This document shows positions 1 to 38,152 of a stretch of 64,000 nt of DNA, piece after piece. Below the pieces are notes generated by a model. That model was not told the origin of the DNA, did not search any database, and was given only the letters and a program-made list of their open reading frames with translations. Position 1 is the stretch's first letter, and each line of letters opens with the position of its first letter. Source of the stretch: an uncultured Gemmatimonadales bacterium. Its GTDB lineage: Bacteria > Actinomycetota > Acidimicrobiia > Spongiisociales > UBA5794. A program made the translations under genes and the position numbers. The stretch lies in assembly GCA_964195945.1 (NCBI GenBank), contig CAXMRC010000135.1, forward strand, positions 16,518 through 80,517, read 5' to 3'.

Positions 1-309
1 GGTGGGCCATACCCGAAGTACTCCTGGTACCAACGTCTTGCCGATTTTCGAGGCGGTCACTCCTGGACAGGAGTGGTGCGTTGTGAGGTATCGAGTGCTC
101 TTACCCTCGGCGAGGCGCAAGTCATAGCCAACCGAACCGCTGCGGTTCTGCCGCTCGTCGGATCTGAGCCACACATCGATCCTCGGGCGCCGCAGAATTT
201 GGTTCCGATCGCAGCTCTGGAGCGCGAGTTGCGAAGACGGTTGGGTGACCCGGCTTTCGTCTACCGTGCGCTACGGTCCGCCGTAGCCGCAGCAGCCGTG
301 GAGGCATGA
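1..309 (+). CDS. 3' end of an upstream gene, truncated by the window edge. Possibly a NurA-like nuclease partner of the downstream HerA-like ATPase.
   Basis: Frame 1 is open from nt 1 to the TGA at 307-309. The listed 73-309 ORF is only the part after an internal Met. The stop lies 1 nt before the ATG of the next gene, so the two are coupled. The C-terminal text (..GGPYPKYSWYQRLADF..) weakly resembles the conserved C-terminal motif of NurA-type nucleases. This is inference only. Confidence 0.4.
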   Translation, partial: GGPYPKYSWYQRLADFRGGHSWTGVVRCEVSSALTLGEAQVIANRTAAVLPLVGSEPHIDPRAPQNLVPIAALERELRRRLGDPAFVYRALRSAVAAAAVEA

Positions 310-310
310 C

Positions 311-2071
311 ATGACCGACAATCGATTCGAGGCTTCCGCTGTCGGCGAATCCGGCGATAACGGAGTAGGGAGGGTTCTCGGAACCGAGCACACTTCGACT
401 CGTGAATTCCGTGTCGTCATCGATGAGTCCGAATACTTGCAACTCGATGATTTGGTCGTCGTCCGCACCCAGGTACCGAAGAAGGGTGAGGTCCGAACCT
501 ACGGCATCGTCACCGAAGTCGCCGCCATCTACGAGGGCGCTAGCTATGAGAGCGATACCCACCGCATCGCCGTTGACGGAACGCTTCCAGGGGCCAAGGT
601 TCGATCAGCCGAGATTGCCATCACCAGGGTTGATCCGGAATTGTGGGTCTCACCAGATCCGGGTGGAAAGGTCGAGCGAGCCCGCGGCATCGAGCGGGAC
701 AAAGCGCTCTATGTCGATGAGATGGGTCGTCCGCTTCCCATCGGTCTCGGGCGAGACGGCGAGCCGGTATATGTGGACCTGGACTTCTTCGATGGTCGCA
801 AAGGTGGCCACATGTCGATCTCAGGCATTAGCGGGGTAGCCACCAAGACATCGTTCGCCCTGTTTTTCCTGCGACTGCTCGCAGCCCGCCCCGACGTTCT
901 CGGCGACGGTGCGGCCAATCTGCGCATTCTCGTCTTCAACGTCAAAGGCGAGGATCTACTTTGGCTCGACAAGAACAATCGGTACTTCGATCAGGCCGCC
1001 GCAGACTCATGGCAGCGTCTTGGAGTCGAACCTGGCCCTTTCGCTTCGGTCTCATTCTGGGCACCGCCGCGGCCGCAGAGCGGAGACGTCGTCATTCCCG
1101 ACACCGGAGGAAGACAGGAGGGCGTTGCCGCCTTTACGTGGACGCCGCGTGAATTCATCGAAGACGGATTGCTGCGGTTCCTATTCACCGATGCGACTGA
1201 CAGCCGCAACCAGATCCCTTTCATCGAAGAACGAGTTAGAGCCCAATTGCGACGATTCGCAGTCGATGTGGAGGGCCGCCCCGGTGCGGTGGTACTACGT
1301 GACCCCATCGAGGGCCACGCTCCTGGCAGTCGGGTCACGCCGAATCCTGGCGAGCGGATCATCAGCGATCTGAAGACTCTGGTCCTGGCGGTCGAAGAAT
1401 TTGTTGACCCCGAGGACGGCGAACCAGACCAGAAGTGGACGGGGAGAGTGCAAGCGGGCACCGTGTCTGCTTTCGTGAGACGACTGCACTCTGCGTCGCA
1501 TCGGCTCGGACATCTCGTGCGGGCAGGTGAGAGCCGCCAGATCGACCGGCGTGCCGCACAGGTCACCGTTGTTGCTATTCAGTCGTTGCACGACCTCGGC
1601 CAGCGTTTCGTAGTGGGCGCCCTGCTAGCAGAGACCTTCGCCGAGAAGGAACACACCGGGCAGCGGTTGCCTTTGTCGGTGATCGTCCTCGACGAATTGA
1701 ACAAGTACGCACCGCGCGAGGGCAACAGCCCTCTCAAGGAAATGCTCATCGACATCGCACAGAGAGGCCGATCGCTCGGGGTGCTGTTGGTCGGCGCACA
1801 GCAGACAGCCTCCCGGGTCGCCTCGGAGGTTATGGAGAATGCCGCGATCCGTGTTGCGGGTCGGCTCGACGCCGCCGAAGCAGAACGCTCAGAGTACGGG
1901 TGGATGCTGCCTTCGACACGGGCACGGGCGCGTCTCCTCAAACCGGGAACGATGGTGCTTAGCCAGCCCGCTCTTCCTGTGCCGCTGGTGGTGGAATTCC
2001 CGTTCCCTCCATGGGCCACCCGTAAGGAAGAAGTCGACACCACCGATACAGATCCCTTCTCCGGCCTGTGA
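311..2071 (+). CDS. HerA-like / DUF87 HAS-barrel ATPase (FtsK-HerA superfamily)
   Basis: The N-terminal segment EFRVVIDESEYLQLDDLVVVRTQ is HAS-barrel-like. There is a degenerate P-loop GISGVATKTS and a Walker-B-like VIVLDELNKYAP, followed by ...IAQRGRSLGVLLVGAQQ. The gene sits directly upstream of sbcDC and overlaps it (GTGA). Confidence 0.65.
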   Translation: MTDNRFEASAVGESGDNGVGRVLGTEHTSTREFRVVIDESEYLQLDDLVVVRTQVPKKGEVRTYGIVTEVAAIYEGASYESDTHRIAVDGTLPGAKVRSAEIAITRVDPELWVSPDPGGKVERARGIERDKALYVDEMGRPLPIGLGRDGEPVYVDLDFFDGRKGGHMSISGISGVATKTSFALFFLRLLAARPDVLGDGAANLRILVFNVKGEDLLWLDKNNRYFDQAAADSWQRLGVEPGPFASVSFWAPPRPQSGDVVIPDTGGRQEGVAAFTWTPREFIEDGLLRFLFTDATDSRNQIPFIEERVRAQLRRFAVDVEGRPGAVVLRDPIEGHAPGSRVTPNPGERIISDLKTLVLAVEEFVDPEDGEPDQKWTGRVQAGTVSAFVRRLHSASHRLGHLVRAGESRQIDRRAAQVTVVAIQSLHDLGQRFVVGALLAETFAEKEHTGQRLPLSVIVLDELNKYAPREGNSPLKEMLIDIAQRGRSLGVLLVGAQQTASRVASEVMENAAIRVAGRLDAAEAERSEYGWMLPSTRARARLLKPGTMVLSQPALPVPLVVEFPFPPWATRKEEVDTTDTDPFSGL

Positions 2072-3237
2072 GAGCCCTGCACACGTCGGATTGGCACGTC
2101 GGGAAACGGATCGGCCGTTACGACCGTGCGGAGGAGTACCGCGCTGTCATCAACGAAGTTGCGAACATCGCCGATGCCGAAGAGGTTGACATCGTCCTCC
2201 ACTCGGGGGATCTGTTTGACCGCCCGGTGCCGCCGATCGAAGCCATGGACATTGCTTTCTCAGGGCTGCTTCGGCTGACCGATTCAGGTAGGCGCCCCGT
2301 TGTCGTTATCGCGGGCAATCACGATTCTGGCGGATTCTTTGAGGCTTTGGCCCCGTTCCTGCGGAACCAAAATGTCCATCTCGTGGGTGAAATCAAGCGG
2401 CCAGACGATGGCGGAGTCCTCGACATTGCAACACCTGCGGGTCGCGCCGTGGTGAGCTGCTTCCCGTTTCTCCGTGAGGGGCGCGCTTTCCATGTTTGGG
2501 ATGCAGTCGAGGAGCACTACAAGCAATACGCTGACCGGTTGCGAGCCATCGCGGAGGCATACTCGACATATGCAGGGGAGCTTGCCGGCAACGATGCGGT
2601 GCAGTTCTTGGTCGCTCACTTCTTGGTCGGAGGTGCCAAGGTCCATGGGCATGGCGCTCCGCGCGGCGAACGTGCCCTCCATATGGGAGAGGCCTATGCC
2701 GCAACCAGCGAAGCGATTCCACCCGGCCCACAGTATGTCGCTCTTGGCCATATCCACGCTCCGCAGCCTGTCCCTGGAGCCAAAGTGCCTGCCGAATACG
2801 CCGGGTCACTCTTGGAGCTTGACTTCGGAGAGGCCGGCGAGAAGAAACGGGTCGTGGTCGTTGATGTCGAGCCGGGTAGTCCTGCTTCGATTCGGTCGAT
2901 TCCGCTGGCCGGCGGGAGGCGTTTGGTGAGGGCCAAAGGAGATTGGCAGCAACTGTTGGTTCGCGACGACGTTCGCGACAGCTACCTGGACCTAACGGTT
3001 GACACAGCAGGGCCCGATCCAGGTCTTGTTGATCGGGCTCGCGACGAATTCGACTTCTTGGTTCATGTGCGAGCCGAGTATCCAAGGGCAGAGACCGATA
3101 CTGCAGCCCGATCCGGAAAGACACTAGATGAACTGTACGGGATCTACTACCAGGAGTTAGAGGGTGTGCCGGCACCGCCTGAGTTGCTGGCGGCGTTCCG
3201 TGAGGTGATGGAGGAGGCTGGATATGCGTCCCCTTGA
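2068..3237 (+). CDS. sbcD: DNA repair exonuclease SbcD (Mre11 family metallophosphoesterase)
   Basis: Calcineurin-like phosphoesterase motifs are present: DWHVG, HSGDLFD, IAGNHD and a GHIH-type motif. The GTG start overlaps the upstream stop, and the gene ends with an ATGA overlap into sbcC. Confidence 0.85.
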   Translation: MRALHTSDWHVGKRIGRYDRAEEYRAVINEVANIADAEEVDIVLHSGDLFDRPVPPIEAMDIAFSGLLRLTDSGRRPVVVIAGNHDSGGFFEALAPFLRNQNVHLVGEIKRPDDGGVLDIATPAGRAVVSCFPFLREGRAFHVWDAVEEHYKQYADRLRAIAEAYSTYAGELAGNDAVQFLVAHFLVGGAKVHGHGAPRGERALHMGEAYAATSEAIPPGPQYVALGHIHAPQPVPGAKVPAEYAGSLLELDFGEAGEKKRVVVVDVEPGSPASIRSIPLAGGRRLVRAKGDWQQLLVRDDVRDSYLDLTVDTAGPDPGLVDRARDEFDFLVHVRAEYPRAETDTAARSGKTLDELYGIYYQELEGVPAPPELLAAFREVMEEAGYASP

Positions 3238-5728
3238 GCTAAAGCTGCGTAACTTTCGGTCCTACGCGGGCGAGCACTCGTTTAGTTTTCGGGATCGGAC
3301 CCTGGTGGGCATTGTCGGTCCCATTGGCAGCGGCAAATCGTCAATACTGGACGGGATCGCGTTTGCGTTGTATGGAAGAACTCCGACTATTGGATCGGCC
3401 ACAAAGACCCTGATCAATCAACGGGCCGCAGACATGAGTGTCGTGCTGCGTTTTGTCGTTGAAGACGAGATCTGGGAGGCCGCTCGCTCGGTCCGCGTCA
3501 AGGGGCAGAGCAAGCACGCCCTGTACCGGTACGAAGAAGATTCACCTGATGCCGAACCCATCGAAAAGCTGACAATGGAGGGCGAAGTCAGTGAACGAAT
3601 TGTTGAGCTGCTCGGGCTCGACTTTTCTGCATTCGAAAGGTCGGTCTTGCTGGCGCAAGGGCGGTTCGCCGAGTTCTTGCGGGCACGGCCGTCCGATCGC
3701 GACAAGGTGCTCAAAGGTGTATTCGGTCACGATCGGGTTGACCGGATGAAGAGCATCGCTAAAGAGCGCAAGGATGGCGCGACGCACGCCCTCGACAAGC
3801 TGGTGATTCGACTTGAGAAGGTTGACGAAGTCAAGCAACGTGTCACGGAGAGCCAACAACAACTCCACCAGACTCAGATCCGCATCAAGCAGCTCGACAA
3901 GGCAGCACCAGACCTGGCCCGGTTCGAAGAAGCACAGCAGACCGCTGCCGAGACCGTTCGCAAAGCACAAGAGCGTCTCCAGGCACTCGAGGAGCATGCC
4001 AGCAAGCTCCCGGATCAGAAGGTCACCCGGCGTTCGCTCGCCGACGCCGCTGCCGCGGAGCAGCGAAGGATCGATCTCGGTAAGGCTTTGGACGAGTCAC
4101 AGAACGTTGTGCAGACTGCGGAAAAGGAGCTCAGGGAGGCCAATGACGCTGAGGAGCCCGAGACGATTGCCGGTGCGGTGCGTCTGTTGGCAGCGGCGGA
4201 CCCGCAACTCAAGGCAGTAGTCGATGCTGACCGTCGTATTGCTATGGAGGCGGAGCGTCTTGCTGCCGCCCAGGGAGCAGTCGCCACAGTGGCAAGCCGA
4301 CTGGGCGAAGCGGAACAGGTCAAGGACAAATCCTTGGGACGCGCCGTAGAAGCGGCGATGATCCTCGATGAAGCGGAACGAGCGCTAGAGAGCGCCAGGC
4401 ATGCCGACATGGCCGCGACCCTACGCGCCGAACTCGTCGTCGGTGTTGAGTGTCCGGTGTGCCAACAGCCGATCGTTGACCTCCCGCACGCAGCTGGAGA
4501 AACTCATCTCACAGAACTCGATCGGGTGCTCGAGAGTGCCCGGCGTACGAAGAAAGAAGTTGACGACTCCCGCACCGAGGCGCTGACCACTCTGGAGCGC
4601 ACCAAGGAGCAACTCGAAGCAGCCAAGGAGAGCGTCGCAGCTGCCGAGAATCAGCTGGCGGGGTTACGCGAAGATTCGATCCGAGCTCGCGGTGATCTCG
4701 AAGAGACGACTCTGGTGCTGGAGAAAATCCTTGGCACCGGCGACCCGGAGGAGCATCTGGAAAGCCGTCGCAAAGCCTACGAGTCGCTTGTCATCGATCG
4801 GGACGAGGCGCAGCGCAGAACTGATCAGGTTCGTGGCGAGCATGATCAGTCGATTCGAGATGAACAGTACGCAAGGAAGGCGCTTCAGGACCTTGGTTTG
4901 AGATTGGCTGAGTTGGCGACGCGACTCGACTTCCCGCTCGAAATTGGAGAGGATCCAGATGCGTTGGGCTCTGCGTTCGATGAACTCAGAGATCGCTGGC
5001 AACAAGCCACCACAGAGCTGGGAAGTGAGCGCGCCACGGCAGAAGCAGCGCAAATCGAAACTGAATCTGCTCGCCGCAAGCTGCTGGCCGGACTTGCAAT
5101 AGAAGACGGTTTTGAAGTGGATCGTGCGGTGCTGGCTGACCGATCCCGCAGGTTGGGTGAGGAGATAGCCACGGGTGGCGAGGAGCTGCAGAAGGCCCGC
5201 GAACTGTTCGAGGAGCGAGGCAAGCTCGAGGACGCGATCGAGTTGTACGGTCGGATCAACACCGACCTTACCGATTCTCGCTTCGTTCGATTCCTGCTTG
5301 ACGATGAGCGGGCGAGGCTCGCGGAGCTGGGTAGCGAACATTTTCAGCAGCTCTCCGCCGGTAGGTATCGTTTTGCGGACGACAAGTTTGCGATTGTTGA
5401 CCTGACGGCAGCTGACGTGGTCCGTCGTGCCGATAGCCTCTCCGGCGGCGAAACGTTTCTTGCATCGCTCGGTCTTGCGCTCGCCCTCGCCGAGATGGTT
5501 GCCGGAACCGGCGGCAGACTTGACGCGTTCTTCTTGGACGAGGGATTCGGCACTCTTGATCCGGAACACCTCGATCTGGCGATGGAGGGCATTGAACAGC
5601 TGGTAGCCGATCAGTCGAACCGGCTTGTGGTAGTTGTAAGCCATGTTCCGGAGATGAGGATGCGTCTCGAAGATCTGATCGAATTGGAGCGCAACCCGCT
5701 GACCGGCGACACAAAGGTGATTGCGTAG
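3224..5728 (+). CDS. sbcC: DNA repair ATPase SbcC (Rad50 family, SMC-like)
   Basis: An N-terminal Walker A GPIGSGKSSILD is followed by a long coiled coil. A CPVCQQ zinc hook sits mid-protein. The C-terminus carries an ABC signature LSGGETF and a Walker B FFLDEGFGTLD. Confidence 0.85.
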   Translation: MRPLELKLRNFRSYAGEHSFSFRDRTLVGIVGPIGSGKSSILDGIAFALYGRTPTIGSATKTLINQRAADMSVVLRFVVEDEIWEAARSVRVKGQSKHALYRYEEDSPDAEPIEKLTMEGEVSERIVELLGLDFSAFERSVLLAQGRFAEFLRARPSDRDKVLKGVFGHDRVDRMKSIAKERKDGATHALDKLVIRLEKVDEVKQRVTESQQQLHQTQIRIKQLDKAAPDLARFEEAQQTAAETVRKAQERLQALEEHASKLPDQKVTRRSLADAAAAEQRRIDLGKALDESQNVVQTAEKELREANDAEEPETIAGAVRLLAAADPQLKAVVDADRRIAMEAERLAAAQGAVATVASRLGEAEQVKDKSLGRAVEAAMILDEAERALESARHADMAATLRAELVVGVECPVCQQPIVDLPHAAGETHLTELDRVLESARRTKKEVDDSRTEALTTLERTKEQLEAAKESVAAAENQLAGLREDSIRARGDLEETTLVLEKILGTGDPEEHLESRRKAYESLVIDRDEAQRRTDQVRGEHDQSIRDEQYARKALQDLGLRLAELATRLDFPLEIGEDPDALGSAFDELRDRWQQATTELGSERATAEAAQIETESARRKLLAGLAIEDGFEVDRAVLADRSRRLGEEIATGGEELQKARELFEERGKLEDAIELYGRINTDLTDSRFVRFLLDDERARLAELGSEHFQQLSAGRYRFADDKFAIVDLTAADVVRRADSLSGGETFLASLGLALALAEMVAGTGGRLDAFFLDEGFGTLDPEHLDLAMEGIEQLVADQSNRLVVVVSHVPEMRMRLEDLIELERNPLTGDTKVIA

Positions 5729-5812
5729 GCTGTCTCCGGGCCGGTGCTCACCCGTCGATCGACCCGAGTCGCTCGGGCGAAACCGCTCCGGATCGCACCG
5801 AAAACACCTAAT

Positions 5813-7261
5813 ATGCCGTCGATGCAACGGCGCGACCTCCCAATAATCATCCAGGGCGGCATGGGAGTGGCAGTCTCCGACTGGCGGCTGGCACGTGCTG
5901 TGTCTTGTCTTGGGCAGTTTGGTGTTGTGTCGGGAACCGCCCTTGACGTTGTCCTAGTGCGTCGTCTCCAGGCGGGTGATATCGGCGGCCACATACGCAG
6001 GGCGGCCTCCCACTTCCCGATCCCGGGAGTGATGAAGAGGGTATTCGATAGGTATTTCGTCGCCGGCGGGCGACAGCTCAGGGAGCGTTTCAAGAGCCAT
6101 CCGATGGGTAGGCTCAAGCCATCACGGAACCTCCTTGATCTGCTGGTGCTCTCCAATTTCGTTGAGGTGTTTCTCGCCAAGGAGGGACACGATGGCCTGG
6201 TCGGCATCAATCTGCTGACCAAGGTGCAAGCACCGACTATTCCCTCCCTCTACGGTGCGATGCTGGCCGGTGTGGACGCGGTTTTAATGGGTGCGGGGAT
6301 CCCCAAGGATATCCCCGGTGTCATTGACAAGCTGGCTGCCGGTGAGTCTGCCGAGCTAAAGCTCGACGTCAAGGGAGCCCCGACCGACAAGCCCTTCTGG
6401 TTGCGGTTCGATCCCGCCGAATACTGCGGTGGGGAACCAATGCGACCCAAGCGGCCGAAATTTTTCCCGATCATCTCATCCGCCGTCTTGGCAACGATGC
6501 TGAGTAAAAAGGCGAGCGGGCGTGTCGATGGGTTCATTGTGGAGGGCCCTACGGCCGGGGGACACAACGCTCCGCCCCGTGGCAAGCTCAAACTGACGGG
6601 GGGCGGCGAGCCGTTGTACGGAGACCGCGATGTGGCGGACCTCGAGGCGATTGCTGCAGTTGGTTTGCCTTTTTGGGTGGCTGGCTCGTATGCCGAACCC
6701 GAGCGAGTGGTCGAGGCGCTAGCCGCTGGCGCGGCGGGAGTCCAGGTTGGCACTGCTTTTGCCTATTCCGAGGAATCCGGGTTCTCCGCTGAGATCAAAG
6801 CCGAGGTGCTGGAGAGAAGCCGCACCGGCAACGTAGAGGTGTTCACGGATCCGCTGGCCTCGCCAACCGGTTTCCCTTTCAAGGTCGTTCCGGTGGCCGA
6901 CACCATGTCCGACACCGCGGTCTATGAGAAGCGGACCCGTGTTTGTGATCTTGGGTATCTGAGGACGCCATACCGAATCGATGACGACACAATCGGCTGG
7001 CGGTGCGCTTCGGAGCCGGTGAAGGATTTCGAGCGCAAGGGTGGCGATGTCGAAGACACGGTGGGTCGTAAGTGTGTGTGTAACGCGCTGATGGCGAGCA
7101 TTGACCTCGGCCAGACCCAGAAGAGTGGTGAGCCGGAGTTGCCTCTGGTCACCTCAGGTGATGACGTATCGCGTGTTGCCCGCTTTCTCAAGCCGGGCGC
7201 CGACACGTATTCCGCTGCCGACGTGATCGACTACCTCCTGCGGGATGTTGTTGCCGGCTAG
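5813..7261 (+). CDS. Nitronate monooxygenase / NMO-family FMN-dependent oxidoreductase (2-nitropropane dioxygenase-like)
   Basis: PIIIQGGMGVAVS..LARAVSCLGQFGVVSG is an FMN-binding NMO signature, and later FIVEGPTAGGHNAP fits the same family. The ORF runs from 5744, but the likely start is the internal Met near 5813. Confidence 0.55.
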   Translation: MPSMQRRDLPIIIQGGMGVAVSDWRLARAVSCLGQFGVVSGTALDVVLVRRLQAGDIGGHIRRAASHFPIPGVMKRVFDRYFVAGGRQLRERFKSHPMGRLKPSRNLLDLLVLSNFVEVFLAKEGHDGLVGINLLTKVQAPTIPSLYGAMLAGVDAVLMGAGIPKDIPGVIDKLAAGESAELKLDVKGAPTDKPFWLRFDPAEYCGGEPMRPKRPKFFPIISSAVLATMLSKKASGRVDGFIVEGPTAGGHNAPPRGKLKLTGGGEPLYGDRDVADLEAIAAVGLPFWVAGSYAEPERVVEALAAGAAGVQVGTAFAYSEESGFSAEIKAEVLERSRTGNVEVFTDPLASPTGFPFKVVPVADTMSDTAVYEKRTRVCDLGYLRTPYRIDDDTIGWRCASEPVKDFERKGGDVEDTVGRKCVCNALMASIDLGQTQKSGEPELPLVTSGDDVSRVARFLKPGADTYSAADVIDYLLRDVVAG

Positions 7262-7290
7262 GTCTCTGCCATCCACCTAGAGTCGCGGTT

Positions 7291-8421
7291 GTGGGACCCC
7301 TAAAAGGCATACGTATCGTCGAACTCGCCGGTCTGGGACCAGGACCGTTCTGTGCGATGCTACTTGCCGATCTTGGTGCCGAAGTTATACGTGTCGACCG
7401 CCCCGGAGAATCCAACTTCCATGGTCTAGACCGAGTCATGTGTCGGAACCGGCGGTCGCTTGGTCTGGATCTGAAGCACCCCGCTGCTTGCGATGTTCTG
7501 CTCGATCTCATCGACACCGCTGACGTGGTTATCGAGGGTCTACGTCCCGGGGTTGCTGAACGACTTGGATTTGGCCCCGAGGTGTGCTCGGGACGTAACG
7601 AGAGGCTTGTATACGGACGAGTAACCGGCTGGGGCCAGGATGGACCCCTCCGGGATCGGGCCGGTCACGACATCAACTACATCGCACTCTCCGGTGCTCT
7701 TGACGCCATTGGACCGGCCGGTGCAAATCCTGTCCCACCCTTGAACCTGGTTGGCGACTTTGGCGGCGGCGCCCTGTACCTCGCGATGGGGATCCTGGCT
7801 GCGTTGGTCGAACGCGCAACTTCGGGGAAGGGGCAAGTCATTGATGCGGCGATGGTTGACGGGGCCGCGTCTCTGATGACGATGTTTTATGAGTTCAAGT
7901 CGATGGGGATGTGGGAAGGGGAGCGAGGCGGCAACCTTCTCGACGGGGGCGTACCGTTCTACGGCACGTACGAAACCGCCGACGGTGGGTCCATGGCGGT
8001 TGGGCCATTGGAGCCGAAGTTCTATGCGGATCTTCTTGGTCGGCTTGGCATGGATGACGTCGACCCAGCGTCACAATACGACCCCTCATCTTGGCCCGTC
8101 CTGCGGGCGAGGCTTGAAGCGGTGTTCCTTACGAAAACGCGGGCAGAATGGTCCGACATCTTCGACAATAGTGATGCTTGTGTGTGGCCCGTCCTGTCGA
8201 TGGCGGAGGCTCCGACCCACCCGCACAACATCGACCGAGAGACATTCGTCGCGATCGACGGTGTGGTCCAGCCTGCGCCGGCACCCCGCTTTTCTCGAAC
8301 TATCCCTGGCCGTCCGTCGTCACCGCCGAACCCCGGTCAGGACACCTCAACCATCCTCAGCGAATTGGGTATTGGTACGGAGCGACTCGCCGACCTTCGT
8401 TCATCCGGTGTGGTGTTTTAA
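7291..8421 (+). CDS. mcr: Alpha-methylacyl-CoA racemase (CoA-transferase family III, CaiB/BaiF)
   Basis: The N-terminus MGPLKGIRIVELAGLGPGPFCAMLLADLGAEVIRVDRP closely matches mycobacterial Mcr. The length is ~376 aa. Confidence 0.8.
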   Translation: MGPLKGIRIVELAGLGPGPFCAMLLADLGAEVIRVDRPGESNFHGLDRVMCRNRRSLGLDLKHPAACDVLLDLIDTADVVIEGLRPGVAERLGFGPEVCSGRNERLVYGRVTGWGQDGPLRDRAGHDINYIALSGALDAIGPAGANPVPPLNLVGDFGGGALYLAMGILAALVERATSGKGQVIDAAMVDGAASLMTMFYEFKSMGMWEGERGGNLLDGGVPFYGTYETADGGSMAVGPLEPKFYADLLGRLGMDDVDPASQYDPSSWPVLRARLEAVFLTKTRAEWSDIFDNSDACVWPVLSMAEAPTHPHNIDRETFVAIDGVVQPAPAPRFSRTIPGRPSSPPNPGQDTSTILSELGIGTERLADLRSSGVVF

Positions 8422-8516
8422 AGCGACGGTGAGCCGCCGTTGCGGAGTCGTGCGGCAGCACAGACCTCGATTCGGGGTATGCAGGTATCGGTAGCATGGA
8501 CAACAAGGAGGCGACT

Positions 8517-9914
8517 ATGCCAGGCACGTTGATCAAGGGCGGGACAGTCATCACCGCGACAGAAACCATGCGGTGCGACGTGCTCATTGATGGCGAGAAG
8601 ATTGTTGCTCTACTCAACGACGCAGCCCCACAACCGACTGTTGACTTTGTGATCGATGCGACCGACCGGCTCGTGTTCCCCGGCTCGGTCGATGCCCACA
8701 CTCACATGGAGATTCCCTTTGGTGCAGCGACGTCGAAGGATACCTTTAAGACCGGCACCCAGGCGGCCGCCTGGGGTGGTACGACCACCATCATCGACTT
8801 CCCGATCCAAATGAAGGGCGACTCGCTGCTGGGGAGTTTCGAAGACACGATGGCGAAGGCTTCGGGTAACTCTGCTATTGACTTTGGTTTCCATCAGATT
8901 GTTGGCGACGTCAACCAGCAGTCACTAGCTGAGCTCGACCTTATTTTCAAAGAAGGCATCACCTCGTACAAACTCTTCACCGCATATCCGGGTGTCTACT
9001 ACTCAACAGACGCTGAGGTGGCCCGAGTCATGCAGTGGGCCTCCGGGAACGGCTCGACAGTGCTGATGCACGCCGAGAACGGTTCTGCGATCGACCTGCT
9101 GCGAGAGCAAGCGATAGCGCGCGGCGACACCTCTCCACTTGCTCATGCCGCGACCCGCCCCGCGGCACTTGAGGGCGAGGCCGCACACCGCGTAATCCTC
9201 CTAGCTGAGATGACAGGAGCTCCGGTATACATCGTTCACATCAGCGCCCGGCAGGTTGTCGAAGAGATTGCAGCCGCCCGCAGCCGCGGAACCAACGCAT
9301 TCGGGGAGACCTGTCCGCAATATCTGTTCTTGGAACTGTCGATGCTTGACCAAGGCTTTGAAGGGGCCAAGTTCGTCTGCTCTCCACCCCTGCGCGACCC
9401 TGCCGAGGGTCACCAGGAGGCCTTGTGGCACGGGCTCGCCAACGGCGCTCTTCAGGTCATCGCAACCGACCACTGTCCCTTCGATTTCGAGGGACAGAAG
9501 ACGCTCGGCAGGGACGACTTCACCAAGATCCCCAACGGGCTACCGGTTGTTGAACATCGCTTCCCACTGATGCTTCATGCGGCGCTTGCGGAGAAGCGGT
9601 TTTCGCTGAATCGTATGGTCGAAGTCAGCTCCACTGCTCCGGCCAAGATGTTTGGGCTCTATCCGCAGAAGGGAACTATCGCGGTCGGGTCCGATGCCGA
9701 CATCGTCATCGTTGATCCCGGGGCGAGTGATGTGCTTTCTGTGGAAACGCACCATATGAACGTTGACTACTCATGTTTCGAAGGCATGGAATTGACCGGC
9801 AAAGTTAAGACTGTGTTGTCAAGAGGGACCGTGGTCATCGCCGATGGCCAGTTCAAGGGGAGCAAGAGTCACGGTCGGTACCTTCGGCGTGGTGTCAACC
9901 AATTGCTCTTTTGA
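8517..9914 (+). CDS. Dihydropyrimidinase / D-hydantoinase (cyclic amidohydrolase)
   Basis: KGGTVIT, a metal-binding DAHTHME and KLFTAYPG are present. An AAGGAGG sits 6 nt upstream of the ATG at 8517. The ORF track starts at 8496. Confidence 0.8.
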   Translation: MPGTLIKGGTVITATETMRCDVLIDGEKIVALLNDAAPQPTVDFVIDATDRLVFPGSVDAHTHMEIPFGAATSKDTFKTGTQAAAWGGTTTIIDFPIQMKGDSLLGSFEDTMAKASGNSAIDFGFHQIVGDVNQQSLAELDLIFKEGITSYKLFTAYPGVYYSTDAEVARVMQWASGNGSTVLMHAENGSAIDLLREQAIARGDTSPLAHAATRPAALEGEAAHRVILLAEMTGAPVYIVHISARQVVEEIAAARSRGTNAFGETCPQYLFLELSMLDQGFEGAKFVCSPPLRDPAEGHQEALWHGLANGALQVIATDHCPFDFEGQKTLGRDDFTKIPNGLPVVEHRFPLMLHAALAEKRFSLNRMVEVSSTAPAKMFGLYPQKGTIAVGSDADIVIVDPGASDVLSVETHHMNVDYSCFEGMELTGKVKTVLSRGTVVIADGQFKGSKSHGRYLRRGVNQLLF

Positions 9915-16733: not shown

Positions 16734-17189
16734 ATGAGAGCAGTTGTACAAAGGGTTGCCCGAGCATCGGTGACCGTAGAAAATGAGGTCGTTGGGGAGA
16801 TCGGTGCGGGGCTTCTGGTTCTGTTGGGTGTCGGCCATGGTGACGGCACTGCCGATGCGGAAGCCCTTGTTGACAAGCTGCTGGGACTACGCATCTTCCC
16901 CGACACCGAGAAGCGAATGAATCTCTCCGTTGTCGATATCGGTGGAGAGATGCTGGTGGTGAGCCAGTTCACGCTTCTTGCGGATATTCGTAAAGGACGA
17001 CGCCCGTCCTTTACGGGTGCGGCTGATCCCAAGATTGCATCTGCCGTAGTTGAAGAAGTCGTCGAATTGGTGCGTGCCCATGGATTAGCGGTGGCCACCG
17101 GCGAGTTCGGGGCGATGATGGATGTTGAGCTTCTCAACGCAGGTCCGGTGACGATCGTCGTCGATGTCGTCGATGGACGGGTTCAGTGA
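16734..17189 (+). CDS. dtd: D-aminoacyl-tRNA deacylase
   Basis: [10 protein letters not shown] is the characteristic N-terminus, and the SQFTL motif is present. 151 aa. Confidence 0.85.
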
Positions 17190-20100
17190 GCGGTGTGGGC
17201 CTTGCCTGCGTCACAGAATCTGAGGAAATCACAGTGCCGGCAGGCGTCTGATGGGGACTGGGGGTACTCGGGACCCGCAGCCGCATTGATCAACTCTTCT
17301 AGATGCTGTCGCGCTTGTTCCAGCCAGTCCTGGTCGATGTCGACTTTGACTTCTTCGAGGGTTCCCGCACCGAGATACGCAAACGTGACTGACATCGTCT
17401 CTGGCGGTTCAGCGGCCAACGCTCCGTCGGCAGCAGCAATGGCGTATGCCTCCAATTGCACCATGGCTGCAGGATTGTTTCGATTGCGACCAGATTTGAA
17501 GTCGACGATTTCCCATGCCCCTGGTGTCGATTCATACACGGCATCGATCCGGCCCCTCACTCGTCCGGAGGGGAGACTGATGTCGATAGGTGCCTCGACA
17601 TATCTCGGCTTCATTTCGGCGAACCGCGAATCGAGGTACACGTCGTAAGGATCGGGACCGCCGCTCACGGGTGCGTCGGATTCAGTCACGTCGTACAGAT
17701 CTTCTGCGAGTTCTTCAAGCGGCATCTCGCCGCGGCCGTGGAGCTCGATGAGGCGATGCACTTTGACACCGCGGCGCATCGCGGGAGCCTGCCGACGGGG
17801 AAGCCGCTCTACTTCTGACCAGTAGAACCGCTGCGGGCAACCTGCCATTGTCACCAAACCGGTAACCGAAGTATCAACTCCGTGGGTGGTTTCCTCTTGT
17901 ATCGGAGAGGCCGGGAGATCATCAAGGATTATGCGCATCTGGTCCACGGCCGCATCGTACGGTTCGTCGGCTCCCGCTACGAGTCCTCGGGGCCAGTCGG
18001 TGTTGGCGAGGGTGTCGCGGAGCGCCTGTCGCCATCCATCGGGAAAGAGCGGGTCGGGTGCGCCGACGCTCGAGACAATCGACAGCGAGATCGGTCGTTC
18101 CCCCGGTTCCGTGACGCGGTGATTGATTTCGACGCCATCGGCGCTGGCAGCCGCGACCAATACCGGACTTGGTGGGCGAGGCTTCGTGGCCCCTCCGTGC
18201 CAATGTGCCCCCGTCAGGTACAACCGAGTCTTGGCTCTCGTGATGCCAACATATGCGGTGCGCCACTCCTGGCGGTCCCTGACCTGGCGAAGAGCTTCCT
18301 TGCGGTCATCCTCATCAAGGCCAAGTGGCACCGGGGCTTCGAGGCGCAGTTCATATGGGACAAACCGTGCCAATCGGATTGGGTCATCCATGGCTCCACC
18401 CCTGACAGGGAAGACACCCTCGGTGAGCGCGGGGAGAAAGACCGTTTCCCACTCGAGTCCCTTGGCGCGGTGAATCGTGAGTAGCACCACCGCGTCCTCG
18501 GTGCCAACATTGGCGGTGTCGAGTTCCGTTGCCGATCTGTCGTTGGCGATCAGATCGAGGTACGCAAGAAAGGCCTGCAGGGTTGGCCTGCCCCGCAGCG
18601 GGCTCCACTCTTCGGCGAGGTCGAGGAAGCGATAAAGGTTGACGCGCGCTGTGAGAGCCGGTGCGGGGCTTCTGGCCTCGACCTCGCTCCAGATTCCGGT
18701 CTCATCAAGGATGTGCCGACACAAATCAACAAGCGAAGTCCCTTGGGCGAGTTCGAGGAATCGACGGTAGAGCATCCTGAACGACAACAGCCGGGTGCGT
18801 GCCGTAGGGGTGATGTCTTCGATCTCTTCGAGCTGATCGATTGCCTCGACAAGAGGCCAACCCAGATCGGGGTCGTCTCCGAGTTGCGCTCGGTTGGGCC
18901 GAATCCAACGGCTCAATGCCGCGATGTCACGCAGCCCCAAGCGATAGCCGGGACCCAGCAGCAGTCGGGCCAGGGCAACAGAGTCGCCGGGCCGTTCGAT
19001 GGTACGGAGCCAGGCGTGCAGATCGGCAACGTCAGGAAGGTCGAGCAGCCCGCCAAGCGACCCGACTTCGACCGGCACGTCGAGTGCTTGGAGCGCATCC
19101 CGGATCAAGGCCATGTCCTTGTTCTTGCGGAAGATGACTGCCATGTCACGCCAGCGAACGTTTTCCTCGTCGTTGAGCCGCACGATTTCTTCTGCGATCC
19201 ACTCTGCCTCATCGACGGCGGTACGAAAGTATTCCGCTGCAACAAAACCGGGAGGTGTGTCAGCGACAGGTTGGAGCGTTGCGAATGGCTCATCTTTGTA
19301 CAGGACACTGCGCACTTCATGGGCGACGTCCAGGATGGACGAACCCGAACGGCGGTTCTCCGTTAGCGGCAATGTCTGCGCCGCTGATCCATCTGCCGCA
19401 GGGAAGTGGACGGGAAAGTTGTCAAAGTTCTCCGTAGATGCGCCACGCCATTCATAGATGGTCTGGTCGGCATCGCCGACTGCCGTTACCGGGAAGCCAT
19501 CGGCAAAGACCGCTCGGAGCAACTCGCGTTGCGCCGGGTCGGTGTCCTGGTATTCGTCGAGCAGCGCAACTGAATACCGATCTCTGATGCGGTTCGCAAT
19601 CTCGGCGTGACCGGTCAACAGCTGGTGAGTGAGCAAGATGAGGTCACCGTAATCAAGAACCCCCAGATCTCGCTTGTGCTGCTCATATCGTCGAACGATC
19701 TGTGCGATTTCGGAACGAGCCGCGGAGATATCATCGTCTGGCGCGACGGCAAGCAGGTCGTTCGCCGAGCGAAGATTACGGGCTAGCTGTGACCCCAGGT
19801 CAGCTGCCTCATCGACCCGCGACGGCACCCAGGTCAGATCGAGATGTTGATACTCTCCCGCGGCGATGGATTCGTGGATGAGTTGTCGCACATAGCCGGG
19901 ACCAACGACGTCGGTATCTCGCTCCACGCCAACTATTGCGCCAAACTCCTGGAGGATGCCATATGCAAAACCGTGGTAAGTGGTGACTTCGACCTCACGT
20001 CCCTCGGCGGCGAGATCCGGAAGCGTGTCGCGCAGCCGCCCTGCCAGCTCCTCGGCCGCCTTGTTGGTGAACGTGATGCCGATGGCCCGCTCCGGGCTCA

Positions 20101-20236
20101 GACCACCCGTAACAAGATGAGCCAGGCGGTGGACGATGGTTGTGGTTTTGCCGGTCCCCGCTCCGGCGATGACGCGAAGGGGGAGGAGAGGATATTCGAT
20201 GATTGCTCTCTGCTCAGGTGTTGGAACGAAGTTCAT
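17183..20236 (-). CDS. adnB: AdnB-like UvrD-family helicase with a C-terminal RecB-type nuclease and Fe-S cysteines
   Basis: Walker A is [10 protein letters not shown], and the UvrD motifs [14 protein letters not shown] and HRAKGLEW follow. The C-terminus has a PD-(D/E)XK region plus [10 protein letters not shown]. The ATG at 20236 overlaps the upstream stop (ATGA). Confidence 0.75.
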
Positions 20237-23200
20237 ACGAACTCTGGACCTCCATCGGCCCACGCGGGGCATAAGGAACGTAGACCGCATCGATCACAGT
20301 GCGGACCGGGATTTGGTGACCAGTCCTCGTTTTGGATTCCAATGGCGATCGCGGTGAGGCGTGCTTCGACCTCGTCAAGTCCTTCCATCTTGAACTTGCG
20401 GACTGCGACCTTCTTGTTCGACGCCATCGGGTACCACAGTTCGGCCCCGACGACCGCGCCCAGCGCACCGATTTCCTCGTCACGCTGTGCGGCGAGTGCG
20501 TAGAACCCCAGCTGCAGCGACTCGCTGGCCTCGGCAACGGTGACCGGGCTTCTGCTTGTCTTGTAGTCGACCACGGTTACACCGGCGGGGGACACATCGA
20601 TCCTGTCGGCTCGTCCTGTCCACCTGACACCGGCTATCACCGTGTCGAGCCTTTGCTCCAAAACCGCGGCAGTTCGCTGCGGGGCCGGCCAGTTCTGGTA
20701 GAGCTTGGCCAAGCCAGCGTGAGCGCGCTGCACCCACGAGTTCGAGAAGGGGGGACCCTCAAAGTCGTATGGATCGAACCTGTCGTTTAGCTCTTGGAGC
20801 GCCTCCTCCAGAGTGCTGTGAGGCCGGCCGTCGGCGACGGCACGTTTTTCGGCTGCTTCCAGCACGTCGTGGATCAGCGTCCCAAACGTTGCGTGGATGG
20901 AGCTGTCCGATCCCACCTTGAGACGCCGTTCAAGTGCATAGCGACGGGGGCAGATTTCGTAGCCCTGCGCTTGCGAGGGAGACAGAACCGGATCGGCACC
21001 GACGAGGAGGTCGTTCGGTCCGCGGGCGGGGACACCGCTGAAAAGCTGCGGTGAGCGTAGATCCCAGGTTGGGCCGTCGGCGAGGGTTGTCAGTGCTGCA
21101 AGACGTGAGGGCGATGGTGCTGCCACGTCTGTCAAACAGCGTCGTAGTGCAGATTCGGCTTCGCTGGGGGTGACCGGTAGACGAGAAGATTCCTGGGGTG
21201 TGGTGTCAGGGGAAACGCATATCTCGATGCGGCCGGCTGGTCGGCCCGGATCTTGGTTGATGGTGGCGGCGATCTTGGTGAAGAACCTGCTCGGTCTTCC
21301 CGGCCCGTCGTCGAGGCCCCGCTCGGTTGCCGTCCACACGACCCGGCGTCGCGCCCGCGTCATTGCCGTGTAGGCGAGACGGCTCTCTTCCTGAAGACGG
21401 AAGGCGCGGTACTCGGCGGTGTCAGTCGGCACGTGAGGGAGAAGGTGCCTGACTCCGAGGAGAGAGTCGCGAGACCGGAGATCTGGGAAGACACCATCGA
21501 CGGCATCGGCGATGAAGACGACATCGAGCTCAAGCCCTTTCGCTTGGTGCAGGGTCGTCAAGGTAAGGCGATCACCGTCGGGTCGGCGGTAGCTGAGCAG
21601 CGGCTGTGCTTCGAAGTCTTCGCTTTCAGCCAAACCGCGGTAGTCGAGCAGCGTCCCTTTTGGATTTCTTTCTTCCCATCGATTGAGCACCTGCGCTAAC
21701 GACCGCCATGCCGCCCGCTCTTCGGCCGCGGTCGGGTCATTGACCATCTCTTCGATTCCAGGCAGCTCGCTCCATACACGCCACAAACCTTGCACCGCAG
21801 GAACCTGATTGGCCCAGCTGGCGTCTGCGATGAGGTTGGCCAGCGGAGCCCAATCTGGGAGGGTGGCCCTGATCGCGGGGGCCCAGGCGCCGGTTGATCT
21901 TGCGGTTCTTTCCAGTGCTCGGTACGCCCCAATGGTCAACCCGACGCGGGATCCGAGCAACACCCTCCGCAAGGATTGATTTGCTGCGATTGGTCCGTCA
22001 CACGCGGTAGCAGCTACGGCGAGGTCGAGTAGAAAGCGAACCGCGGGCTGGTCGGTGAGCCTGCTGCCGGGTAGTTCGTGGGGCACATGACGTCTCTCCA
22101 GTGCCCGTGACATGTCAGCCAGGAAGCGACGTTTGCTGCGAACGAAGACTCCGATGTTGCTGTACGGGATTCTCTCCGTCAGGTGGAGGCGCTGTGCCTC
22201 GGATGCGATCCATTCTGCTTCTTCTACCTGTTGGTCAAACAGATACGCCTCGACAGCACCGCGACCTGCGGCAGGGACTACGGCTCCTGTCGCCCCTGGG
22301 AGGTCTCCGGTGGTTACGTGTACGGCCGCGTTGAGGATGGTCTCTGGCGTACGGAAGGAGGTCGTCAGCAGAATGCGTGTTGCCATCTCATCCGAGGCCC
22401 CAAAATCGCTCTCGAACGCAGCGACATTTTCGACGGTGGCGCCGCGGAAGCTGTATATCGACTGGTAGGGATCGGCGGCAGCTGCGATATGCCGTCCGCG
22501 ATGCTGTAGAGCTTGTAGCAGTCGAACCTGGGCTGTAGTGGTGTCCTGGTACTCATCAACCAGGACATAGCCAGGGGAGTCGACCGTTGCGAGATCGCCG
22601 GACTCCAGCAAAGTGACCGCGGTAGCGATCAGGGTTCCGTAGTCGATGCGGTCGGTCCCGCGTAGCTCGTTGGTGTACGTCTCGAGGAATTGAGGGAGGC
22701 CTTTCCAATCATCCCGCTGCATCGTGGCGAGGGAGGTCGGTGTGTGCATCTGCTCGGCGGCGCGCAGTATGAAGTCGGTCACTTCCTTTGCAAATGTCTG
22801 AGTGCCAAGAAGCTGCGAAAACGCCTGTGACCACGACCCGGGGTTCTCCGCGAGGAGAAGACGATGTACAAGTGCAACTTGTTCCGGACCAGTCAGGATC
22901 TGAGGGTTGACGGTCCAACCCGCCTGCTCGGCATGGTTCTCGACGAGCCGTGCGGCATATGAGTGAAAAGTTGCGACATCGAGTTCCCCGATGGTCGCGG
23001 GTATGCCGGCGCGGATTCGTTCTCGAACCTCTGCCACACCACGGCGGGAGAAGCCGAGGATCGTAATAGCCTCGGGGCGAACTTCCTTTGCGGTAAGCAA
23101 GTGGATAGCCCGACGCACCAGAAACTCGGTCTTGCCGGTTCCCGGCCCCCCGACAACTATCTGTGGTCCGTCAGTTAGGGCGACCGCGTCGGCCCATCCG

Positions 23201-23247
23201 TCCGGTTCGACAGCGATGATCGGCGCGTCTTGGGACCATTGGCTCAC
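20233..23247 (-). CDS. adnA: AdnA-like UvrD-family helicase-nuclease subunit
   Basis: The N-terminus has VVGGPGTGKTEFL, and DEYQDT, IYSFRGA and HQAKGLE follow. The C-terminal nuclease region ends in HCDRCGLRSLC. The start overlaps the stop of the upstream nuclease gene. Confidence 0.75.
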   Translation of the reverse strand: MSQWSQDAPIIAVEPDGWADAVALTDGPQIVVGGPGTGKTEFLVRRAIHLLTAKEVRPEAITILGFSRRGVAEVRERIRAGIPATIGELDVATFHSYAARLVENHAEQAGWTVNPQILTGPEQVALVHRLLLAENPGSWSQAFSQLLGTQTFAKEVTDFILRAAEQMHTPTSLATMQRDDWKGLPQFLETYTNELRGTDRIDYGTLIATAVTLLESGDLATVDSPGYVLVDEYQDTTTAQVRLLQALQHRGRHIAAAADPYQSIYSFRGATVENVAAFESDFGASDEMATRILLTTSFRTPETILNAAVHVTTGDLPGATGAVVPAAGRGAVEAYLFDQQVEEAEWIASEAQRLHLTERIPYSNIGVFVRSKRRFLADMSRALERRHVPHELPGSRLTDQPAVRFLLDLAVAATACDGPIAANQSLRRVLLGSRVGLTIGAYRALERTARSTGAWAPAIRATLPDWAPLANLIADASWANQVPAVQGLWRVWSELPGIEEMVNDPTAAEERAAWRSLAQVLNRWEERNPKGTLLDYRGLAESEDFEAQPLLSYRRPDGDRLTLTTLHQAKGLELDVVFIADAVDGVFPDLRSRDSLLGVRHLLPHVPTDTAEYRAFRLQEESRLAYTAMTRARRRVVWTATERGLDDGPGRPSRFFTKIAATINQDPGRPAGRIEICVSPDTTPQESSRLPVTPSEAESALRRCLTDVAAPSPSRLAALTTLADGPTWDLRSPQLFSGVPARGPNDLLVGADPVLSPSQAQGYEICPRRYALERRLKVGSDSSIHATFGTLIHDVLEAAEKRAVADGRPHSTLEEALQELNDRFDPYDFEGPPFSNSWVQRAHAGLAKLYQNWPAPQRTAAVLEQRLDTVIAGVRWTGRADRIDVSPAGVTVVDYKTSRSPVTVAEASESLQLGFYALAAQRDEEIGALGAVVGAELWYPMASNKKVAVRKFKMEGLDEVEARLTAIAIGIQNEDWSPNPGPHCDRCGLRSLCPAWADGGPEFV

Positions 23248-24086
23248 GACGCGGCGACTGCGGCGTTCGCCTCATCGGCAAATGCAGGGCAGCGATCTTG
23301 GAACTGGCACCAACCACACAGCTTGCCTGGTCGGGGAGGGAAATCGTTTTTGACGATTGCCCGATTGATCGCAGACCACAATGCCTCTAACTTTCGCTGT
23401 GTTGCGTCCAGTTGGAGGTCGTTCACCGGTATCTCGTAGACGGTTGGCCCGTTGAGGTACATCAGCTTCAGGCGGACTGGAGTTCGTCCGATCCGCTTCC
23501 TGATCAATAACGCATAGATTTTTAGGGCAAAGAACGCCGGGATTGCATACTGCTCGGGAGGAGCTTTACCGGTCTTGTAATCAGTGATCACAACACCGTC
23601 CGGTTCCTCTTCCATACGGTCCAGGATCCCTCGAATCGTCATATCTCCGAGATCCTCGGTCATGTCCAGCTCGCGGTCGAGTGGCTCGAGTTGGGTCGGA
23701 TCCTCTACCAAGAAATAATTGGCGAGAACACCGAGACTTTCGATGCCCCAGGCCCGCTCATCTTCAGTGTTGTCAAAGAGGTCGGGGAACTCTTCGTCGC
23801 GGAGCTCCACCCACGCCTTGCGGAACAACCCGTAAAGGGTTTCGGGTGTTCGTTCTTTGGCGGCTAGGTCAAATAGCCATTGCAGTGCTAGATGAGCTGT
23901 TGTCCCGCGTGCCTGATAGACCGTTGGCGGAACTTCGATCTTGTCGATCGCCTTGAATTTGAAAAGCTGTGGGCAGACTTTGAAGTCGCCGGCGCGGCTT
24001 GGCGATAGCGTCTCCAAGGAGGTCGGCGGAGACATCTCCGGCTTCGGTCGAGGTGTCTTCTGCGGGGTTTTGTCAGGAGTTGTCAT
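23244..24086 (-). CDS. Cas4-like / RecB-family PD-(D/E)XK nuclease with a 4-Cys Fe-S cluster
   Basis: An N-terminal Cys (FKVCPQLF) pairs with a C-terminal CGWCQFQDRC, giving the C..CxxCx5C pattern. A DYK(TG) motif is present. GGAGA sits 5 nt before the ATG at 24086. The ORF track extends to 24344. Confidence 0.65.
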   Translation of the reverse strand: MTTPDKTPQKTPRPKPEMSPPTSLETLSPSRAGDFKVCPQLFKFKAIDKIEVPPTVYQARGTTAHLALQWLFDLAAKERTPETLYGLFRKAWVELRDEEFPDLFDNTEDERAWGIESLGVLANYFLVEDPTQLEPLDRELDMTEDLGDMTIRGILDRMEEEPDGVVITDYKTGKAPPEQYAIPAFFALKIYALLIRKRIGRTPVRLKLMYLNGPTVYEIPVNDLQLDATQRKLEALWSAINRAIVKNDFPPRPGKLCGWCQFQDRCPAFADEANAAVAAS

Positions 24087-24239
24087 CGTTTCTCCGACTA
24101 TACGCCGGCCCACCGACATAAACCACATCGATGTAGTTATCCACAGCCGGACGCGTCGATGGAGCAGCGGCAACAGCCGATGGTGATGCATCGCGAAACA
24201 ATTTCGTAGCACGCGAAAACTATAATGCGATCTGGTTTG

Positions 24240-38008: not shown

Positions 38009-38152
38009 GTCGGGAAAACCTCCTGAGGCGGCCGGGGAGTGTACCAGCGTTTGGCCCCACGCCGGAATGCTGCTGCCAAATCGGGGCGCAACAAACAGAC
38101 CTCGGGGTTGAGATGCTCGGTAACAATACCAAATGCTGATACTTTCTGGGTC

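Follow-up and report, generated by a model that had tools for sequence, protein, structure and literature searches.

A chromosomal nurA-herA-sbcD-sbcC operon, probably for DNA-end processing, in an Acidimicrobiia bacterium

We describe a single operon, nurA-herA-sbcD-sbcC, that occupies nucleotides (nt) 1..5728 on the plus strand of a 64,000-nt stretch of bacterial DNA, hereafter the window, and that probably constitutes one DNA-end-processing cluster. The operon is chromosomal and belongs to an Acidimicrobiia bacterium (Actinomycetota); the HerA proteins most similar to its own, with identities of up to 94%, come from Acidimicrobiia metagenome-assembled genomes. We think it probable, at roughly 75%, that the four genes encode a two-module machine that would process DNA double-strand ends, pairing NurA-HerA with SbcCD.

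Four same-strand, closely packed genes fill the region, as determined from the list of open reading frames (ORFs) and by direct reading of the junctions, confirming the four consecutive plus-strand ORFs described in a first-pass annotation of this DNA. The first, nurA (1..309, +), begins outside the window, which holds only its C-terminal 102 codons and the stop codon TGA (307..309), in frame 1. After a 1-nt gap comes the ATG of herA at 311 (311..2071, +), whose product of 586 amino acids (aa) is predicted, from its match in a PDB sequence search, to be a hexameric double-stranded DNA translocase of the bacterial clade of the FtsK-HerA superfamily. Family models and motifs identify the next two genes as sbcD (2068..3237, +; 389 aa, GTG start), encoding a putative Mre11-type, Mn-dependent nuclease, and sbcC (3224..5728, +; 834 aa, ATG start), encoding a putative SMC-like ATPase of the Rad50 type whose coiled coil is short. 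The sbcD start and the herA stop share the 4 nt GTGA (2068..2071), and sbcC overlaps sbcD by 14 nt (3224..3237); the junctions of 1-4 nt reported earlier are therefore found between nurA and herA and between herA and sbcD, but not between sbcD and sbcC. A Shine-Dalgarno-like GGAGG (299..303, +) precedes the herA ATG, and a second such element, GGAGGAGG (3210..3217, +), lies within the 3' end of sbcD ahead of the sbcC ATG, both recognized by direct reading of the sequence. The start/stop overlaps amount to translational coupling of the operon genes.

Strong homologues were found for each of the four genes, indicating that these are real genes and not chance ORFs; G+C content is about 60% and even across the region. 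Opposite-strand ORFs of 191-387 aa within the operon were rejected as genes because they gave no family matches, and we regard them as the shadows usual in coding DNA of 60% G+C. A repeat scan of 1..6000 returned short, chance-level matches only, and a scan for a promoter or terminator from 5728 to the gene after sbcC revealed nothing convincing. In the closest genome found (L001), a divergent MFS transporter gene lies upstream of nurA, indicating that nurA is the first gene of the operon.

The 586-aa protein is, as judged by alignment, a full-length orthologue of Deinococcus radiodurans HerA. In a PDB sequence search its residues 15-577 matched residues 11-603 of 7f6d_B (E 3.6e-122), and a profile search returned the same chain with E 5.2e-141; entry 7F6D is the cryo-electron microscopy structure of the D. 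radiodurans HerA-NurA complex (PMC9960219). This match bears out the HerA identity that the first-pass annotation had proposed, and the P-loop and Walker B motif claimed there are both present. The Walker A motif is deviant, GISGVATKT (nt 824-853), with K179 and T180 aligning to K175 and T176 of the D. radiodurans protein, while D461 and E462 of the Walker B motif, VLDE, align to D487 and E488 and lie in a stretch (nt 1685-1723) that also holds R469. D215 (nt 938-955), equivalent to D220, is the catalytic acidic residue that follows strand beta2, and the DNA-contacting or translocation arginines R469 and R526 (the latter at nt 1874-1897) align to R495 and R552. Every D. radiodurans HerA residue tested by mutation is conserved in this alignment, and K179, T180, D215, D461 and E462 are invariant across 22 diverse representatives of the family, which are 33-54% identical to the window HerA. 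By analogy, a hexameric ring, ATP-driven translocation on double-stranded DNA and NurA stimulation are predicted for the window protein.

Domain libraries gave a different picture. The DUF87 profile (PF01935), proposed earlier as a check on the 586-aa protein, did not match it at E<=10 in a Pfam search, and the HAS-barrel model (PF09378) reached only E 0.2 and 12.2 bits, below its cutoff of 25.2; the HAS-barrel-like N-terminus that had been claimed is thus supported by the full-length alignment to D. radiodurans HerA and not by Pfam. NCBIfam offered no useful match for either HerA or the NurA fragment, and both were identified through the PDB sequence search after Pfam and NCBIfam had given nothing useful. 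The bacterial HerA clade numbers thousands of database entries, annotated mostly as 'ATP-binding protein' or 'hypothetical', and carries no precomputed Pfam domain; because this is true of the whole clade, the failure of the window HerA to reach Pfam cutoffs reflects the coverage of the models and not the protein. Profile libraries miss the bacterial HerA/NurA family systematically. No archaeal HerA structure matched at E<=1 in either the sequence or the profile search of the PDB, and HerA and NurA both belong to the bacterial clade represented by D. radiodurans and Thermotoga. The suggestion that the protein might instead be a TraD or FtsK fragment found no support: among TraD, FtsK and type VII secretion ATPases only EssC/EccC matched, with E 0.001-0.01 against curated cutoffs of more than 500 bits, and this candidate was rejected.

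The truncated gene upstream of herA, which had been suspected of encoding a nuclease partner, encodes NurA, a predicted nuclease with an RNase-H-like fold. The fragment at 1..309 matched residues 267-364 of the 369 of D. radiodurans NurA (7f6d_H, E 6.7e-12) in the PDB search, and its orthologue in L001 is an intact ORF of 333 aa that is 86% identical over the part shared with the fragment. This intact protein in turn matched both D. radiodurans NurA (7f6d_H, E 1.4e-25) and Thermotoga maritima NurA (1ZUP, 1zup_A; E 7e-11). The active site of the T. maritima enzyme consists of D49, E140, D157 and E280 (PMC3300031); the fourth of these residues, Glu280, is conserved in the fragment as E74 (within AALERE, nt 220-222), and D74, E167, D184 and E305 of the L001 protein align to all four. 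The L001 orthologue falls under the cutoff of the Pfam NurA model (PF09376, E 0.023), and NurA genes linked to bacterial herA likewise score under it. With NurA as the partner, there is neither a SIR2 nor a DUF4297 protein in this position, nor the unrelated housekeeping gene that had been entertained as an alternative.

The remaining two genes encode bacterial-type SbcD and SbcC, and the earlier placement of SbcD and then SbcC after HerA in one operon was upheld by Pfam and TIGR models. SbcD scored 152.8 bits against TIGR00619 (cutoff 77.65, E 1.4e-44) and matched Pfam Metallophos (1e-15), whereas its match to the archaeal Mre11 model was far weaker (E 2.8e-15); the five phosphoesterase motifs DWH, GDLFD, GNHD, AH and GHIH are all present, at aa 7-12, 47-51, 83-86, 182-185 and 227-230. 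For SbcC the best-scoring family was TIGR00618 (E 1.7e-64), although the score of 218.3 bits lies under the curated full-length cutoff of 478.5; the archaeal Rad50 model again matched far more weakly (E 9.1e-25). SbcC also passes the Pfam cutoffs for AAA_23, SMC_N and SbcC_Walker_B, and its head motifs are complete (Walker A GPIGSGKSS, Q-loop, signature LSGGE, Walker B FFLDE and H-loop). A zinc hook, CPVC, sits at aa 410-413 (nt 4451-4462), in the middle of the 834 aa. Compared with SbcC of the Escherichia coli type, the window protein falls short by about 200 aa, and its coiled coil is rather short and divergent. At the level of sequence, then, the 'archaeal-style' label given in the first-pass annotation does not hold: bacterial models fit SbcD and SbcC much better than archaeal ones do, archaeal HerA structures went undetected at E<=1, and the label is an analogy only, all four proteins being of bacterial type.

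We examined the conservation of the operon by scanning one genome per species, which yielded 261 HerA relatives; the best 80 were retained, all of them Acidimicrobiia-type and 75-95% identical to the window HerA, and these loci were searched by tblastn with the four window proteins. SbcD lies directly downstream of HerA in 80 of the 80 loci, NurA directly upstream in 78 (in the remaining two, herA is the first gene of the locus), and SbcC follows in all 74 that reach far enough. The order nurA-herA-sbcD-sbcC is thus strictly kept in Acidimicrobiia, which answers, wherever the flanks reach, the earlier call for a synteny check in related genomes. An NMO-like gene after sbcC is common only to the closest relatives and lies outside the four-gene unit.

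Other phyla carry the same genes. A tblastn search of a plasmid collection with HerA returned six records that link HerA to SbcD-SbcC (the Nostoc record ends earlier): nurA-herA-sbcD-sbcC in Sphaerospermopsis and Aulosira (Cyanobacteriota) and in Ca. Chlorohelix (L085; Chloroflexota); nurA-herA, cut by the record end, in Nostoc (Cyanobacteriota); and herA-sbcD-sbcC-nurA on a plasmid of Streptomyces sp. BB1-1-1 (L082, 6932..14501) and a replicon of Nonomuraea gerenzanensis (L081, 7001..13480), both Actinomycetota. The last of these orders is that of the archaeal herA-mre11-rad50-nurA operon; in all other bacterial examples nurA comes first. Profile searches and context look-ups revealed chromosomal clusters in two Dehalococcoidia, in Vicinamibacteria (Acidobacteriota), in Solirubrobacter (Thermoleophilia) and on one 3.4-Mb contig. 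The HerA family as a whole comprises 371 clusters at 50% clustering (E<=1e-30), and the four-gene linkage is its common state, seen in at least five phyla. This distribution, and the publication of such a cluster from Oceanithermus profundus (PMC5448004), contradict the rarity that the first-pass annotation implied.

These data also bear on whether nurA-herA and sbcD-sbcC are independent two-gene units that merely lie side by side. Context look-ups found nurA-herA without sbcDC in Deinococcus maricopensis and on one other contig, so the pairs can exist apart. Nevertheless, herA and sbcD share 4 nt, the linkage is seen in all 80 Acidimicrobiia loci as well as in four or more other phyla, and it survives the reordering that puts nurA last in the cluster. 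Given this conservation, chance adjacency is effectively refuted, and we regard an incidental arrangement as extremely improbable.

In the two-module machine that we favour, SbcCD, being of the Mre11-Rad50 type, would find DNA ends and would first open or clean those that are blocked or form hairpins. The HerA hexamer, using ATP, would thread the duplex end through its central pore and feed the DNA into a NurA dimer docked at the HAS-barrel face, where NurA would cut the strands to yield resected ends for RecA. The four proteins would probably be made from one transcript, in fixed proportion, and would work beside AdnAB, a helicase-nuclease whose genes lie 11.5 kb away. The operonic coupling and the conserved linkage suggest that the modules share their substrates. 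Elsewhere, D. radiodurans NurA-HerA carries out ATP-dependent DNA end resection (PMC9960219); archaeal HerA-NurA cooperates with Mre11-Rad50, with HerA binding Mre11 (PMC2288612; PMC4663267); and in archaea both resection and viability depend on the four-protein system (PMC4351679). A direct contact of SbcCD with HerA-NurA, like that of Sulfolobus Mre11 with HerA, is plausible by the same analogy.

Several points weigh against this proposal. The N-terminal two-thirds of nurA, with three of the four active-site residues, lies outside the window. Physical contact between SbcCD and HerA-NurA is something that we infer from gene linkage, and the putative mechanism is drawn from the biochemistry of D. 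radiodurans and archaea, not from that of bacterial four-gene clusters. Loss of both nurA and herA in D. radiodurans, whose sbcCD is not linked to them, raises resistance to ultraviolet (UV) light and mitomycin C about 10-fold (PMC9960219), and because of this gain a simple pro-repair role is not established for bacteria. Finally, AdnAB is encoded in the same window, so that NurA-HerA would not be the sole resection machine and would represent at most a parallel pathway.

The gain of UV and mitomycin C resistance in the knockouts is in keeping with a second explanation, in which NurA-HerA restrains or edits recombination, or serves segregation or DNA transfer, and its linkage to sbcDC reflects a shared task of removing aberrant replication structures. 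E. coli SbcCD acts mainly on fork hairpins and palindromes and antagonises some recombination routes (PMC1193525), paralogues of the HerA family in Thermus are reported to take part in DNA donation (PMC5365140), and AdnAB could cover canonical resection in the window's host. We nonetheless consider this explanation unlikely: in vitro, the D. radiodurans complex genuinely resects DNA ends (PMC9960219), the archaeal system is needed for resection and for viability (PMC4351679), and nothing at the window locus indicates functions in segregation or transfer.

A third explanation is that the cassette serves anti-phage or anti-plasmid defence, the HerA ATPase activating NurA, with help from SbcCD, against foreign linear DNA in the manner of SIR2-HerA and DUF4297-HerA. 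Its presence among the six plasmid-collection matches (Nostoc again cut at the record end), which include one conjugative and one mobilizable plasmid, is consistent with such a role, as are the company of CapP-like ImmA/IrrE peptidases adjoining the Streptomyces and Chlorohelix cassettes, of Wadjet type II by the former and of a TIR protein and a kinase on the latter plasmid. Only these plasmid copies point to defence. The window HerA matched the PADLOC models HerA (3.5e-6) and mad8 (6.3e-7) weakly, over about 100 residues of the ATPase core (residues 417-520 only for the HerA model); SbcC matches such as LmuB reflect generic SMC-head similarity; no operon protein gave a strong match to a PADLOC defence model; and the partner is NurA, not SIR2 or DUF4297. 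In Acidimicrobiia, moreover, the operon lies on the chromosome; HerA is 75-95% identical and the order fixed over the best 80 of 261 species-level loci, a class-wide conservation that argues for vertical housekeeping inheritance and not for a patchy defence island. Metabolic genes flank the window operon, and among 2.9 million viral contigs there was one weak relative only. Taken together, we judge a role in defence to be quite unlikely. A phage origin of the operon was likewise rejected, the single relative among the viral contigs being 25% identical.

The surroundings of the mobile copies were recorded separately. An ImmA/IrrE metallopeptidase scoring as PADLOC CapP lies directly beside the cassette on both the Streptomyces plasmid (L082, 4659..6367; E 2.6e-21) and the Chlorohelix plasmid (L085, 4502..5838; E 5.8e-20), and in these two unrelated plasmids it is accompanied by a small unannotated protein. 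This arrangement suggests that mobile copies are under DNA-damage-responsive control of the CapH/CapP or DdrO/IrrE kind. No CapP-like gene was seen upstream of nurA in L001, the window's close relative. The Streptomyces plasmid further carries, at 1..4436, Wadjet type II JetA2 and JetB2 (E 3.6e-162 and 1.1e-104) with a TIGR02680 JetC-like gene, and the Chlorohelix plasmid carries, at 1..2591, a TIR-domain protein together with a Ser/Thr kinase similar to PD-T4-6.

Tight operonic coupling of NurA-HerA to SbcCD is widespread, and we offer, tentatively, a broader proposal: that nurA-herA-sbcDC, and not the isolated Deinococcus/Thermus pair, may be the default bacterial form, acting as one integrated machine that is the counterpart of archaeal Mre11-Rad50-HerA-NurA. 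It may perhaps also be a mobile module, plasmid copies of which, under CapP/IrrE-like damage control and near defence genes, would protect or police DNA in genetic conflicts. In D. radiodurans the nurA-herA pair has no linkage to SbcCD, and mutants that lack it show odd phenotypes; if the proposal is right, the puzzling Deinococcus and Thermus phenotypes would stem from the study of an atypical, uncoupled version. Carriers of the full cassette, such as cultured Solirubrobacter, Streptomyces and cyanobacteria, would be better models for bacterial NurA-HerA, and a question to put to them is whether a two-step resection like that of archaea and eukaryotes operates beside AdnAB, AddAB or RecBCD. 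For the annotation of the window, the correction is from 'ATP-binding protein' to HerA and from 'hypothetical protein' to NurA.

The 64-kb window as a whole is notably rich in genes for DNA repair and chromosome maintenance: besides the operon it holds AdnAB, RecG and SMC. The AdnAB pair consists of a 1035-aa protein (17183..20290, -) matching Mycobacterium smegmatis AdnB (6ppu_B, E 6e-93) and a 1004-aa protein (20233..23247, -) matching AdnA (7sjr_A, E 2e-35), each with a UvrD helicase and a PD-(D/E)XK nuclease; a third, stand-alone PD-(D/E)XK protein of 366 aa (23244..24344, -) lies beside them. A RecG helicase with wedge and helicase domains is encoded at 38039..40333 (+), and a complete SMC protein, hinge included, at 46419..49859 (+). 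Three metabolic genes follow sbcC within 5744..9914 (+). The first encodes an NMO-family oxidoreductase (Pfam NMO, 2.3e-15), and the others, judged by eye, encode a protein whose N-terminus resembles CoA-transferase family III (7291..8421, +) and an amidohydrolase of the hydantoinase/dihydropyrimidinase-like type (8496..9914, +). An ALIL pseudoknot (Rfam RF01497; 57848..57961, +; 89 bits, E 1.9e-21), the frameshift element of IS3-family transposases, stands at the start of an ORF at 57818..58786, where there is probably an IS3-type insertion sequence.

Among the closest known systems is D. radiodurans NurA-HerA (DR_0836/DR_0837; 7F6D, 7WRW; PMC9960219), whose two proteins are orthologous to those of the window (NurA by way of L001). 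The systems share nurA followed by an abutting herA, the deviant Walker A GISGVATKT, the Walker B motif and the DNA-contacting arginines. In Deinococcus, however, the pair stands alone, with no sbcDC following it in D. maricopensis, whereas sbcD of the window overlaps the herA stop. Bacterial NurA-HerA has been studied chiefly in D. radiodurans (PMC8708640), in which the link of SbcCD to HerA-NurA was still unknown to Cheng et al. 2015 (PMC4663267).

The defence HerA proteins (SIR2-HerA and DUF4297-HerA; PDB 8XAU and others) share with the window protein the FtsK-HerA ATPase core and an adjacent effector under the HerA ring; the similarity is marginal (E 0.005 over about 120 residues), and the window differs in having NurA as partner and in being chromosomal, vertically conserved and linked to SbcCD. 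A parallel in arrangement is Bacillus subtilis, where addB-addA precede sbcD-sbcC in a putative operon (PMC1533848), and because of which the earlier premise that bacterial sbcDC normally stands alone was too strong. There, too, the genes immediately before sbcD-sbcC specify a helicase-nuclease for long-range resection, but it is AddAB, with a UvrD-type helicase and a PD-(D/E)XK nuclease, in place of the predicted ring translocase and RNase-H-fold nuclease of the window.

The archaeal herA-mre11-rad50-nurA operon of Sulfolobus and Pyrococcus holds the same four functional components, a HerA hexameric motor and NurA dimer nuclease beside an Mre11/Rad50-type complex; it differs in that the window order starts with nurA, the window proteins are of bacterial type, and the window host is not a thermophilic archaeon and has AdnAB as well. 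The same four genes in the same order, with bacterial SbcD and SbcC, are known to us from a paper on O. profundus, in which Blesa et al. 2017 described sbcD and sbcC downstream of hepA (herA), giving nurA-hepA(herA)-sbcD-sbcC, and read the architecture as resembling the archaeal break-repair system (PMC5448004). That host belongs to Deinococcota rather than Actinomycetota, and its cluster was mentioned in passing and left uncharacterised. The window operon is thus a further case of a widespread, already published and little-studied arrangement.

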